64,000 nucleotides of DNA from Escherichia coli (GCF_003334305.1 NZ_QOWS01000004.1), one strand, 5' to 3'. Positions 31,897 to 58,935 are shown, numbered from the stretch's first letter. Translations and numbers: made by a program. Notes: generated by a model from the sequence alone, not told the origin.

Positions 31897-32657
31897 CGGT
31901 TTATCCCCGCTGGCGCGGGGAACACTCACGCGCTGTTACCCAGTCCCTTTTTTTCAGCGGTTTATCCCCGCTGGCGCGGGGAACACCGCCGCGGACTCAC
32001 GAGCAGACCATCACAGACCGGTTTATCCCCGCTGGCGCGGGGAACACGCAGACTATAACGAGGGTCGCACGCGGATCATCGGTTTATCCCCGCTGGCGCG
32101 GGGAACACTACCAAACCGGAATCTTTCCATATAACGGCGGCGGTTTATCCCCGCTGGCGCGGGGAACACTTACTCGCCGGGGAATACGCCCCGCGCCACG
32201 CCGGTTTATCCCCGCTGGCGCGGGGAACACCTTACTCATTCAGAACGCTGCATGAAATATGCCGGTTTATCCCCGCTGGCGCGGGGAACACACCCTCCAG
32301 ATCTCGGGTGTCGGTAATGAAAACGGTTTATCCCCGCTGGCGCGGGGAACACGAGCGCGTGCCGTGCCTGGGTTCATATGATGGCGGTTTATCCCCGCTG
32401 GCGCGGGGAACACGTGGTTGTTTAGGCGGGATTTGTTGCGTAAGTCGGTTTATCCCCGCTGGCGCGGGGAACACCCATTTCATCATGAACGGCGGAAATA
32501 TCGTGGCGGTTTATCCCCGCTGGCGCGGGGAACACTCGTTTCAGTTCAGTTAGATTTATATCCAGCGCGGTTTATCCCCGCTGGCGCGGGGAACACGCTG
32601 GCCGTCGTTTTTACTCAGTAACCGCCAACGGTTTATCCCCGCTGGCGCGGGGAACAC
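31897..32657 (-). CRISPR. CRISPR array 1: 13 direct repeats of 29 bp with 12 spacers of 32 bp (type I-E repeat)
   Basis: CGGTTTATCCCCGCTGGCGCGGGGAACAC recurs at exact 61-bp period from 31897 to 32629; the leader and cas2 lie on the high-coordinate side, so transcription is inferred to run on the minus strand. Confidence 0.97.
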
Positions 32658-32753
32658 ACTAAGCATACATAACTGTTTTTAAACAAATTTATTCCGCATC
32701 AACAATCTACCAACTAAATTAAAACATTTCCTTATTTTTAAAGAACGGATAAC
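32658..32753 (-). promoter_or_regulatory. CRISPR array 1 leader (AT-rich; conserved motif CAATCTACCAACT at 32703-32715)
   Basis: AT-rich non-coding stretch between the last repeat and cas2; shares a motif at identical offset with the array 2 flank. Confidence 0.75.
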
Positions 32754-33047
32754 TTATTGATTATCAACAGGAAGAAAAGAAACCAAACGTAACCCATCCA
32801 AATCCACCGGAATACGTCTGTTTTCTCCCCAGGTCTGAAATTCAAAACCCGACTCGGTATTGGTCGCCCAGGCCATCACCACATTTCCGCAACCAGCCAG
32901 TTGGGTAATTTGCTGCCAGATCATCTCCCGAATACGTTTTGATGTATCACCAACATACACACCGGCACGCACTTCCAGTAGCCAGATTGCGAGCCGTCCA
33001 CGTAAGCGCGGCGGGACATTTTCTGTAACAACCACGACCATGCTCAT
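32754..33047 (-). CDS. cas2: CRISPR-associated endoribonuclease Cas2
   Basis: 97 aa, [34 protein letters not shown]; 1-nt overlap with the cas1 stop. Confidence 0.95.
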
Positions 33048-33967
33048 CAGCCGCGTCCTCGATGACCGCTATCGCCCAACGTTTCAGGTTCGGGGATGGC
33101 TGGCGGTAACATATCCGGCGCAGGTTGTGGCGGTTCAATTTCACCTGCGGCAAGGACTTCCTCAATTAACGGTATTAATTTGCCCGTTAACTTAGTGCTA
33201 CGGAAAATATCGCGACAGGCTAATCTGACTTCTTTATCAGGTTCTGCGGGTTGCCTCGCTGCTATTTCAAATGCCTTTGGCACAACCGAATCAAATTTAA
33301 TGATATCGGCTATGTCATAAACAAATGAAAGCGGTTTGCCACTATGGATAAACCCAATAGCGGGCGCATATCCCGCGGCTAATACTGCCGCTTCAGATAT
33401 ACCGTACAGACATGATGTAGCAGCACTGATGCAGCGATTCACAACATCGCCTTTTTCCCAGTCTTTAGGATCGTATTTGCGACCATTCCATTTCACACCA
33501 TATTGTTTCGCCAGTAATGCATACGTCTGGCGAACGCGAGATCCCTCAATTCCACGTAGCTGCTCCACTGAACGGCGAGCTGGCGGTGGCTCACGAAAAC
33601 GTAATTCATACATTTTGCGCACCACCTTCAGGCGTAGATCTTCCGTTAAAGCCAGCTTTGCCTGGTAGAGTAACTTATCAGCACGCGCCCCACCGGGTTG
33701 TCCGGAAGAGTAGACGCGAACACCCGCTTCACCGACCCAGACCAGTAGCGTCCCCACCGTGGCGGCCAGATGCACCGCCGCGTGGGAAACTCTCGTTCCC
33801 GGTTCGAGCATAATGCAGGCGACCGATCCCACCGGAATGTGCGTGCGGATCCCGGTTTTGTTGATCAGCACGAAAGCACCGTCCAGTACGTCGATTTGAC
33901 CGTACTGGAGGAAGATCATGGAGGTGCGATCTTTTAACGGGATCGGACTCAGTGGTACAAACGTCAC
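33047..33967 (-). CDS. cas1: CRISPR-associated integrase Cas1 (type I-E)
   Basis: 306 aa, [27 protein letters not shown]. Confidence 0.96.
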
Positions 33968-34614
33968 GCCTCTGCTCCGGGTTTGATCAGCATCAGACCA
34001 CAGCCGAACGCCCGGCTTTTGCCATACCCCTGACTGAGACGTTGCAGAAATAACCCGGGATCGGTGACCGTAAGCATCCCCGTATAATCCACGCTACTGA
34101 ACTGGATCAGTTGCCGGGTGTTTTCCCGCCGGGGTTGTTGTTGTCGGTAGGCATCAACCGAGGTATCCAGTAGTGTAAAACCACTTCTTTCCCCCTGCGC
34201 TGCCAGCCAGTCCAGCGCCGCCTGTTGTTGATGCAACCAGATATCACGCCCTTCCGCCTGCCCCTTCACCTGCCGTTTCGCCTCCATCAGCAGATCGTGG
34301 CGCTTGCCCGCTTTACAGATTGTTGGATTCGCCCGCAGGTTGAAACAAAGAGATTGTCCGGTACGCAGCTCGGACACAAATGGTCGGCATTCGATGGTGA
34401 AAGTTTCACTTTCCGCCGGGCGTGCCTGCGAGAGGACAAAAAAGCGAAACGCGCCCTGGAGTTCTTCCCGACGATAAAGAAATTGCCTTTCTTTGCCGCC
34501 AGGGAAGAGATCCCACAGCCACTGATGCATCACATATTCACCGCGATCCACCAGATGCAGCAACTGCGCAGGCGAAAGCTGGCCGGTATGTAAGGTTATT
34601 CTTGAGAGGTACAT
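33964..34614 (-). CDS. casE: Cascade subunit CasE/Cas6e (pre-crRNA endoribonuclease)
   Basis: Start chosen at MYLSRITLHTG (216 aa) inside the 262-aa track ORF, which extends upstream into casD. Confidence 0.85.
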   Translation of the reverse strand: MYLSRITLHTGQLSPAQLLHLVDRGEYVMHQWLWDLFPGGKERQFLYRREELQGAFRFFVLSQARPAESETFTIECRPFVSELRTGQSLCFNLRANPTICKAGKRHDLLMEAKRQVKGQAEGRDIWLHQQQAALDWLAAQGERSGFTLLDTSVDAYRQQQPRRENTRQLIQFSSVDYTGMLTVTDPGLFLQRLSQGYGKSRAFGCGLMLIKPGAEA

Positions 34615-57719: not shown

Positions 57720-57765
57720 GTGAGGAAGGCCGGGCGGGAAACTGCCCGGCCTGAACATACCTGAA

Positions 57766-57903
57766 TGGTTATCCCCGCTGACGCGGGGAACATAAGTTCG
57801 ACAACTTAAAAAATGATAACAAGTCCGGTTTATCCCCGCTGATGCAGGGAACATAATAAAAACTTTAACTAGTTCGGTTTATCCCTGTTTTTACAAGGAA
57901 TAT
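57766..57903 (-). CRISPR. Degenerate CRISPR remnant (3 decayed repeats, spacers of 32 and 20 nt)
   Basis: tggttatccccgctgacgcggggaacat / cggtttatccccgctgatgcagggaacat / cggtttatccctgtttttacaaggaatat. Confidence 0.8.
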
Positions 57904-58357
57904 TAACTACACTCGATGTCTTTAGAATAAAAGACAATACGAATCGCACTTTATCAATTTTCACTTAAAGTATGAACTGGATATCTTTATTCATAAGAAC
58001 TATTCATCAACAGCGTATAGAGGCGGTTATGTAAAACCACTCATTAGCCTCAAAACAAAGACAAACTTCCAGATTTATTACTTAACCAATGAATAACAAG
58101 CTTAAAAAATATACTGTTATTCTAAAGAAAAAATTAACAGGCATTAATTCAATATTAAAAAAATAATAGATTAAAATTTCTTAACGATTTAAGAATCATA
58201 CAAATAACACTTTGATTAAATTTAATTTTTTGTATCGATAATTGTGAACCTCTCTGGCATGGAGAACTATTTTGAACATGAGGTGTTACGTGGATATGTT
58301 GCTTATTACAAGTACTGCTAATATAAAAACTTGAGAAAGAGATAACGGGTTATATGG

Positions 58358-58935
58358 TGGTTTATCCCCGCTGGCGCGGGGAGCTCAACATCGGAAACGG
58401 CTTCGCGGCGGCGGCGTCCGGTTTATCCCCGCTGGCGCGGGGAGCTCTACGTGAAGAATATTTGCAACACCCGCAAGAACGGTTTATCCCCGCTGGCGCG
58501 GGGAGCTCGGCATAGCCAGGCTGATCCGGCGACGGCCTTACGGTTTATCCCCGCTGGCGCGGGGAACACTGTTCGGCGGGGCGGTAGTACCACTGTTTTT
58601 TCGGTTTATCCCCGCTGGCGCGGGGAACACATCAACATGCAGCGCGAACGGCTGCCCCTCGCCGGTTTATCCCCGCTGGCGCGGGGAACACTCTTATTCA
58701 GTCCCCTTTTCCATCTGCTGTGGCGGTTTATCCCCGCTGGCGCGGGGAACACGTAAATTGCGACGTCCTGCGCCAGTAATTCAACGGTTTATCCCCGCTG
58801 GCGCGGGGAACACGATGCGGCAGCGGCGGCGGGAAGTTATCGCGGCGGTTTATCCCCGCTGGCGCGGGGAACACCTTTCAATATAGTCAGAAAAGTCTTT
58901 TGGCAACGGTTTATCCCCGCTGGCGCGGGGAACAC
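58358..58935 (-). CRISPR. CRISPR array 2: 10 repeats with 9 spacers of 32 bp, no adjacent cas genes
   Basis: Exact 61-bp period from 58358 to 58907; the three low-coordinate repeats end GGGGAGCTC and the first starts with T; the leader motif is on the high-coordinate flank. Confidence 0.96.

Follow-up and report, generated by a model that had tools for sequence, protein, structure and literature searches.

Temperate enterobacterial phages as the probable source of spacers in the two type I-E CRISPR arrays of Escherichia coli strain A7

A 64,000-nt stretch of Escherichia coli DNA (NZ_QOWS01000004.1; hereafter the window) carries two CRISPR arrays together with a type I-E cas operon; over positions 30700-33100 it is 100% identical to the chromosome of E. 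coli strain A7 (NZ_CP028767.1, assembly GCF_022493755.1; orangutan faeces, USA). A preliminary description of the window had listed the spacers of both arrays as being of unknown origin, and had held that their origin could be resolved only by database search and that matches to phages or plasmids would reveal past exposure. An origin was assigned here to 11 of the 21 spacers, in each case in temperate phages, prophages or phage-plasmids of enterobacteria, so that the earlier wording now applies to the other ten. On this basis we consider it highly probable (about 0.9) that the two chromosomal type I-E arrays of strain A7 are an inherited record of the encounters of this lineage with temperate enterobacterial phages. 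The two arrays are:

31897-32657, minus strand: CRISPR-1 array, 13 repeats of 29 bp and 12 spacers of 32 bp (repeat finding, pattern scan, RefSeq)
58358-58935, minus strand: CRISPR-2 array, 10 repeats and 9 spacers (repeat finding, pattern scan, RefSeq)

Spacers are named A1_01 to A1_12 and A2_01 to A2_09 according to plus-strand coordinate, the newest being A1_12 and A2_09.

Origins of the spacers

The spacers were joined in the sense of the CRISPR RNA (crRNA), separated by runs of N, and compared by blastn with short words (E up to 10) with 50,697 phage records, with the PLSDB plasmids and with 5,426 complete E. coli genomes (28 Gb); 22-mer scans were made of IMG/VR, GTDB and JGI data. A second run against the E. 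coli genomes was limited to the ten leader-proximal spacers and listed non-array matches clearly. The 11 assigned spacers comprise six on one P2-related prophage, one on a P2-like integrase, two on a second prophage, one on a tail-fibre gene and one on darB. Among the phage records the sole full-length match was that of A1_03 to darB of phage D6 (29/32), the rest being weak partial matches; isolated-phage records by themselves thus say very little, the targets being prophages that are still uncharacterised. In PLSDB the same darB match was found in more than 100 phage-plasmids and, in addition, there were matches to three E. coli chromosomes filed as plasmids (NZ_OL790696.1, NZ_CP141089.1 and NZ_CP134663.1; 4.8-4.9 Mb), one of which has all nine array-2 spacers. 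Such misfiled chromosomes yield false plasmid matches for spacers.

Six spacers, including the newest of both arrays, align to a single prophage of ~30 kb, found in two versions (N1420 and LZSFT34):

32597-32628, minus strand: A1_12, newest spacer of array 1; 32/32, protospacer-adjacent motif (PAM) ATG, small gene between exonuclease and dam
32353-32384, minus strand: A1_08; 32/32 in the LZSFT34 portal gene, PAM ACG
58875-58906, minus strand: A2_09, newest spacer of array 2; 32/32, PAM ATG, N1420 gene for a 440-amino acid protein of unknown function, beside the replication endonuclease gene
58814-58845, minus strand: A2_08; 28/32, PAM ATG, tail-tube-like gene of N1420, on the strand opposite to the other five
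58753-58784, minus strand: A2_07; 30/32, replication endonuclease gene of both P2-related prophages
58692-58723, minus strand: A2_06; 30/32, PAM AAG, 3' end of the same 440-amino acid gene of N1420

The gene content of this prophage is integrase, Fil, exonuclease, dam, replication endonuclease, ogr, portal and terminase, along with a GPO scaffold, a P2-family capsid, gpM, sheath, tube and baseplate J. The gene matched by A1_12 is annotated as ParE-like and belongs to a PHROG family of unknown function; its protospacer lies, in locus coordinates, at 20001-20032 of L004 (NZ_CP176489.1, 1933354-1958254) and at 27891-27922 of L006. Against the N1420 prophage A1_08 matches at 26/32, again with PAM ACG, and all six mismatches fall at third codon positions. 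The two prophages differ in the PAM of A2_07 (ATG in LZSFT34, ACG in N1420), the varying base being a third codon position. A2_08 is also found in LZSFT34 (27/32), with an echo (26/28) in a tail protein gene of Pasteurella phage Pmp6. In N1420, five of the six protospacers are on one strand at 20.0-27.0 kb of the locus, that is, within 7 kb, and the sixth is on the other strand at 34.6 kb.

A megablast search of the 50,697 phage records for relatives of the N1420-type prophage gave none, and the prophage is carried by 8 of the 5,426 complete E. coli genomes. In a further 432 genomes the resemblance is confined to short perfect matches, all those listed being 36 nt long and located inside annotated CRISPR arrays; one of them is the leader-proximal CRISPR-1 spacer of K-12 MG1655 (L039, 10001-10036), which matches the same lineage in the gpM gene, with PAM AAG. 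The idea that the prophage is confined to strains without cas genes was rejected: when a chimeric query consisting of a prophage segment and both cas7e variants was used, cas7e was found in 7 of the 8 carriers, as against ~70% of all genomes.

The five remaining assigned spacers are all in array 1:

32536-32567, minus strand: A1_11; 32/32, PAM ATG, gene for an 83-amino acid terminase-small-subunit-like protein of the STEC379/STEC384 prophage
32292-32323, minus strand: A1_07; 30/32, PAM AGG, terminase small subunit gene of STEC379
32475-32506, minus strand: A1_10; 28/32 (28/29 by BLAST), PAM ACG, integrase gene of classical P2-like prophages
32109-32140, minus strand: A1_04; 30/32, PAM ATG, tail-fibre gene (598 amino acids) on IMG/VR contig 3300030310_000017
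32048-32079, minus strand: A1_03; 29/32, darB, which encodes an anti-restriction helicase, in phage D6 and over 100 phage-plasmids of the D6/P1-like type

The protospacers of A1_07 and A1_11 are on the same strand with 923 bp between them, in a prophage that combines lambdoid-type regulatory and replication genes with a myovirus-type tail; megablast of the STEC379-type prophage against the phage records gave only fragments of ~170 nt or less. The integrase matched by A1_10 is present in dozens of E. coli genomes, and the integrases of Salmonella phages SW9 and SI22 gave a weak echo. The target of A1_04, a myovirus tail-fibre gene located downstream of a tail-protein gene, was found by the 22-mer scan, and both mismatches are at third codon positions. 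The same protospacer, in the same register, also serves as a spacer in CRISPR-2 of IDR1900005638-01-02 (NZ_CP054282.1; L038, 701-732), an unrelated strain with K-12-type repeats. That spacer has the synonymous GAGCGA in place of GAAAGA, from which we infer that the same protospacer was captured independently and from a different allele.

The PLSDB records that match A1_03 are non-mobilizable replicons of ~90 kb. Its three mismatches (positions 6, 18 and 30) are all third codon positions, and a wobble-tolerant pattern recovered 27 IMG/VR contigs with darB alleles varying at the same sites. No darB allele closer than three mismatches was found, nor any that is PAM-proficient, the known flanks being ATT or ATA; the -1 base is itself a third codon position. 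The regular placing of the mismatches could be read as the every-sixth positions tolerated by Cascade, but this was set aside because all three are wobble sites that vary alike in the 27 alleles.

Could these matches be chance similarity, the true sources being quite different? Some single E-values are borderline (0.08 for A1_03 against D6; 0.03-0.07 for A1_10). However, four of the 21 spacers (A1_08, A1_11, A1_12 and A2_09) match at 32/32, each with E = 2e-5 against 28 Gb, and the chance expectation of even a 26/32 match for any of the 21 spacers in a 40-kb locus is ~6e-5. One prophage accounts for six spacers and a second for two. Third codon positions hold the mismatches in every phased case for A1_03, A1_04, A1_08 and A2_07, and in almost all phased cases overall; this is the mark of allelic divergence in a coding gene and points to true homologues rather than random similarity, as does the synonymous A1_04 allele. 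The flanks agree: the PAMs of the 11 best protospacers are ATG (six), ACG (two), AAG and AGG (one each) and ATT/ATA (one), read on the strand identical to the crRNA spacer as is usual for type I-E. The 5'-AWG motif is present in 7 of the 11 (P ~9e-9), G at -1 in 10 (P ~8e-6) and A at -3 in all 11. The short-query blastn and PAM check proposed in the preliminary description gave matches for 11 spacers with the expected motif beside most of them. Chance similarity is refuted for the 32/32 and the clustered matches, and for the assignments as a whole we consider it scarcely credible.

For ten spacers no source was found in the phage, PLSDB and E. coli genome searches:

31926-31957, minus strand: A1_01, origin not found
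31987-32018, minus strand: A1_02, origin not found
32170-32201, minus strand: A1_05, origin not found
32231-32262, minus strand: A1_06, origin not found
32414-32445, minus strand: A1_09, origin not found; non-array matches absent and 22-mer scans empty
58387-58418, minus strand: A2_01, origin not found
58448-58479, minus strand: A2_02, origin not found
58509-58540, minus strand: A2_03, origin not found
58570-58601, minus strand: A2_04, origin not found
58631-58662, minus strand: A2_05, origin not found

In IMG/VR, scans for exact 22-mers gave nothing for A1_01, A1_02, A1_06, A1_09, A2_04 and A2_05, nor did those of GTDB genome contigs for A1_09 and A1_06 or of JGI metagenome contigs for A1_09; A1_05 and A2_01 to A2_03 were covered by database blastn only, with no individual 22-mer scan. 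Weak protospacers of the ten older spacers may have escaped, since array copies swamp the E. coli genome matches. Of these spacers, A1_02, A1_05 and A1_06 are also found in the arrays of further E. coli strains.

The preliminary description had also pointed out that a match to the host chromosome would mean self-targeting. When all 21 spacers were compared with NZ_CP028767.1 (E up to 10), only two places matched, the listed one being array 1 and the other taken as array 2 (plasmids of A7 were not checked singly). With no match in the A7 chromosome outside the arrays, there is no self-targeting.

Arrays, cas operon and neighbouring elements

In the A7 chromosome the RefSeq order is cysDNC, iap, CRISPR, cas2e, cas1e, cas6e, cas5e, cas7e, casB, casA, cas3, hok, cysHIJ and, further on, ygcE, CRISPR, queE. 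The loci are the usual E. coli CRISPR-1 (iap-cas) and CRISPR-2 (ygcE-queE) arrays, and both are already carried as 'CRISPR' features in RefSeq.

All 13 repeats of array 1 are identical by pattern scan (plus strand CGGTTTATCCCCGCTGGCGCGGGGAACAC; crRNA sense GTGTTCCCCGCGCCAGCGGGGATAAACCG). The same sequence is found exactly in 7 of the 10 repeats of array 2, the other three being leader-distal variants (58358-58508) in which, in crRNA sense, a GAGCTC end replaces GTGTTC with no effect on the hairpin; the last of the three begins with T. These variant-repeat blocks mark the oldest part of array 2. The 23 repeats all follow at an exact spacing of 61 bp, so that the spacers between them, 12 in array 1 and 9 in array 2, each measure exactly 32 bp; the first begins at 31926 and the last finishes at 58906. 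The number, length and extent of the spacers given in the preliminary description were thus borne out by the pattern scan. No two of the 21 spacers are alike, no further copy of any of them occurs within the 64-kb window at up to 9 mismatches, and the best resemblance to the repeat elsewhere in the window is 19/29. With 20 perfect 29-mers at a fixed period, an origin by chance is excluded.

The repeat forms a hairpin with a 7-bp stem and a loop of 4 nt (-15.2 kcal/mol, z = -3.2) and differs from the K-12-type repeat of another strain at 2 of 29 bases. No CRISPR-DR family reached the Rfam gathering threshold in the window, where only sok was reported, and for this reason the assignment to a repeat family rests on direct comparison. 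The organisation is that of type I-E arrays: a unit of 29-bp repeat and 32-bp spacer, a hairpin followed by AUAAACCG, a leader, and cas1-cas2 beside the primary array. The leaders are:

32658-32753, minus strand: CRISPR-1 leader, AT-rich, between cas2e and the first repeat (sequence; resembles the array-2 leader)
58936-59030, minus strand: CRISPR-2 leader, AT-rich, inner boundary approximate (sequence; resembles leader 1)

The two leaders share 76% identity over 90 nt, and as each stands at the high-coordinate side of its array, the arrays are read on the minus strand. The distribution of spacers follows a gradient, the widely shared ones being leader-distal and the rarer ones leader-proximal.

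Next to the CRISPR-1 leader is the type I-E cas operon of eight genes (RefSeq, NCBIfam models):

32754-41312, minus strand: the whole operon
32754-33047, minus strand: cas2e
33047-33967, minus strand: cas1e
33964-34614, minus strand: cas6e
34596-35342, minus strand: cas5e
35353-36408, minus strand: cas7e
36420-36956, minus strand: casB
36953-38515, minus strand: casA
38613-41312, minus strand: cas3

The genes are uninterrupted, in canonical order and free of any RefSeq pseudogene flag. All eight Cas proteins match I-E models of NCBIfam; seven pass the I-E equivalog or exception cut-offs, and Cas3 passes by way of the core helicase and HD domain models. The K-12-specific models for CasA and Cas3 remain below cut-off whereas the general I-E models pass. 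Given also that cas7e has no blastn similarity to cas7e of K-12, the operon is assigned to the second, non-K-12 sequence variant found among E. coli I-E operons. The excess of ATG over AAG among the protospacers (6 versus 1) may reflect a preference of this variant.

Decayed CRISPR elements were found near both arrays:

31836-31864, minus strand: decayed terminal repeat, 18/29, exactly one period past array 1 (in-phase alignment)
31865-31896, minus strand: 13th and oldest 'anchor' spacer, enclosed by the decayed repeat and just outside the RefSeq CRISPR feature
57765-57903, minus strand: decayed mini-array; its three degenerate repeats match at 24, 25 and 19 of 29 positions and enclose spacers of 32 and 20 bp (alignment, folding)

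The count of 21 spacers accordingly holds for the two intact arrays and omits the 13th, fossil spacer and the mini-array. The anchor spacer, for which the phage-match search gave nothing credible, has a single occurrence in 4,242 of the 5,426 complete E. coli genomes. The mini-array is 455 bp away from array 2. Its three copies all retain the 7-bp/4-nt hairpin despite 4 to 10 substitutions each; in the third, both sides of the stem have changed in such a way that pairing is kept. The ATAAACCG end is intact in the two copies folded, and the mini-array may still undergo processing.

Two other elements were noted in the window. A hok/sok toxin-antitoxin locus (41507-41801, minus strand) is situated between cas3 and cysH:

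41507-41659, minus strand: Hok/Gef coding sequence (RefSeq)
41644-41801, minus strand: sok antisense RNA (Rfam RF01794, 113 bits)

A 26-nt direct repeat, ACGCGTCTTATCAGGCCTACAAG..., occurs with 96% identity in intergenic sequence at 42696-42721 and 49200-49225; it resembles an E. coli REP/BIME (repetitive extragenic palindromic/bacterial interspersed mosaic) element.

Age of the arrays and alternative explanations

The newest spacers are not private to A7. NCTC9088 has all six newest of array 1, five of which occur in another four strains, and the four newest of array 2 are also in A28 (echidna) and DETEC-E601 (sink); among the matches sampled, A2_01 to A2_03 recur in arrays of many genomes. 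Strain 41, TUM12355, WL164, FCI51 and H15 likewise belong to the strains that share arrays with A7. Since even the newest spacers of both arrays are common to other isolates, the arrays are old, inherited and slowly changing. If the pathway known from K-12 applies, Cas1-Cas2 would have inserted the spacers singly at the leader end. Each array would be transcribed on the minus strand from its AT-rich leader, and cleavage of every repeat by Cas6e would give 61-nt crRNAs composed of the AUAAACCG handle, the 32-nt spacer and the hairpin; Cascade with its crRNA would then locate matching DNA beside a 5'-AWG PAM, form an R-loop and recruit Cas3 for degradation.

That A1_12 and A2_06 to A2_09, together with A1_08, come from one lineage is what a single epidemic in the past, with primed or end-directed adaptation in a burst, would give, without proving it; capture from DNA ends near a replication origin or cos site would produce a cluster of similar appearance. 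Going further, the rare N1420/LZSFT34 lineage could be the chief natural opponent of the E. coli I-E system and the one that last activated adaptation in this supposedly silent system; we regard this suggestion as speculative and rather doubtful. If it were true, this phage would be a natural model for how, in wild strains, the system is activated, adaptation is primed and a PAM (ATG/ACG) is chosen. As a lead, a P2-related lineage targeted by A7, K-12 and hundreds of strains could be used to test whether and when the E. coli system is active.

Several observations weigh against the reading of the arrays as an inherited record of phages. Ten of the 21 spacers are without an identified source. 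The mismatches of A1_07 (positions 2 and 5) and some of those of A1_10 (positions 1 and 2) fall in the seed, and where the flank is not AWG (ACG twice, ATT/ATA once) the sequence matched may differ from the true donor or may resist cleavage. The strand bias of the N1420 protospacers (5/6) is not significant alone, such a bias being expected with a probability of ~0.22 by chance, and cas7e in seven of the eight prophage carriers indicates that possessing the system does not alone exclude the phage. Finally, the K-12 system is silenced by H-NS, as Pul 2010 and Westra 2010 reportedly established.

A different view of the arrays is that the spacers are old and vertically inherited, that they confer no immunity at present because the operon is silent, and that the arrays now serve only as lineage markers. 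This view concerns present activity and is compatible with a phage origin of the spacers, and we give it somewhat less than an even chance. Besides H-NS silencing in K-12 and the cas7e-bearing carriers, it draws on the sharing of the newest spacers with NCTC9088, A28, DETEC-E601 and others, and on the wide occurrence of A2_01 to A2_03 and of the anchor spacer; in addition, Touchon and Rocha (PMC2886076) describe near-identical arrays in strains diverged less than 250,000 years ago. On the other hand, all eight cas genes are intact, the identity of 13/13 repeats in array 1 and 7/10 in array 2 suggests maintenance over decay, and the prophage is rare (8/5,426) while 432 genomes match it by short perfect matches, as some degree of protection would look. 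The spacers might instead have been taken from prophages resident in an ancestor, the resulting self-targeting having been resolved by loss of the prophage. It is true that every identified source is a temperate element and that A7 is now without these protospacers, as expected after curing, and E. coli strains with spacers matching their own prophage or plasmids are on record in Touchon and Rocha (PMC2886076). Yet no remnant of an N1420- or STEC379-type prophage was seen in the A7 chromosome at the level of spacer matches, full prophage-to-A7 comparisons not having been run, and infection and induction of a resident prophage give the same spacers, so that the data cannot separate the two. We consider a resident source unlikely and retain past encounters with temperate phages as the preferred reading.

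Comparison with known systems

The arrays are textbook E. coli type I-E loci, ordinary and previously described for the species. As in K-12, cysDNC, iap, an array, cas2 to cas3 and cysH are followed by ygcE, an array and queE; in the K-12 nomenclature CRISPR-1 is the array at iap-cas and CRISPR-2 that at ygcE-ygcF/queE, with CRISPR2.1 and 2.3 also in use. The 29-bp repeat is the same except for two bases (GTGTT here, GAGTT in K-12), as are the 32-bp spacers, the hairpin and the leader on the cas2 side, and the N1420-type lineage is a target of both strains through the leader-proximal CRISPR-1 spacer of K-12. The two systems differ in cas operon sequence, A7 having the other of the E. coli variants, and in that ATG, not AAG, is the commonest PAM here; moreover, no K-12 array was among the listed matches of the 21 spacers, a statement about those matches rather than a direct comparison of the arrays.

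The six spacers on the N1420/LZSFT34 prophage resemble the outcome of primed adaptation in K-12 experiments: several clustered spacers (five within 7 kb), mostly from one strand, with A2_06 to A2_09 consecutive and leader-proximal. In contrast to those experiments, there is here a retrospective pattern only, with a donor phage known only approximately in sequence.

In the survey of Touchon and Rocha (2010; PMC2886076), the chromosomal protospacers of CRISPR1/2 were all in prophages (integrase, tail and capsid genes), matches to isolated phages were few and included 'defense against restriction', up to 8 spacers were found per element, and array turnover was slow. The present spacers show the same pattern of prophage protospacers, darB of P1-like phages and several spacers from both arrays per element, with different strains targeting the same prophage class. 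The N1420/LZSFT34-type prophage did not turn up in E24377A in the E. coli genome search and is therefore probably not of the Ph1-E24377A/Ph1-SE11 class, with which no direct comparison was made. The share of matched spacers is higher here, 11/21 (52%) versus 8% in 2010 (PMC2886076), because genome collections are far larger today and not because the biology is different. For the field this changes little, the loci being already annotated and the types of target in line with the 2010 surveys; the practical point is that E. coli spacers lead back mostly to uncharacterised prophages carried by other E. coli genomes.

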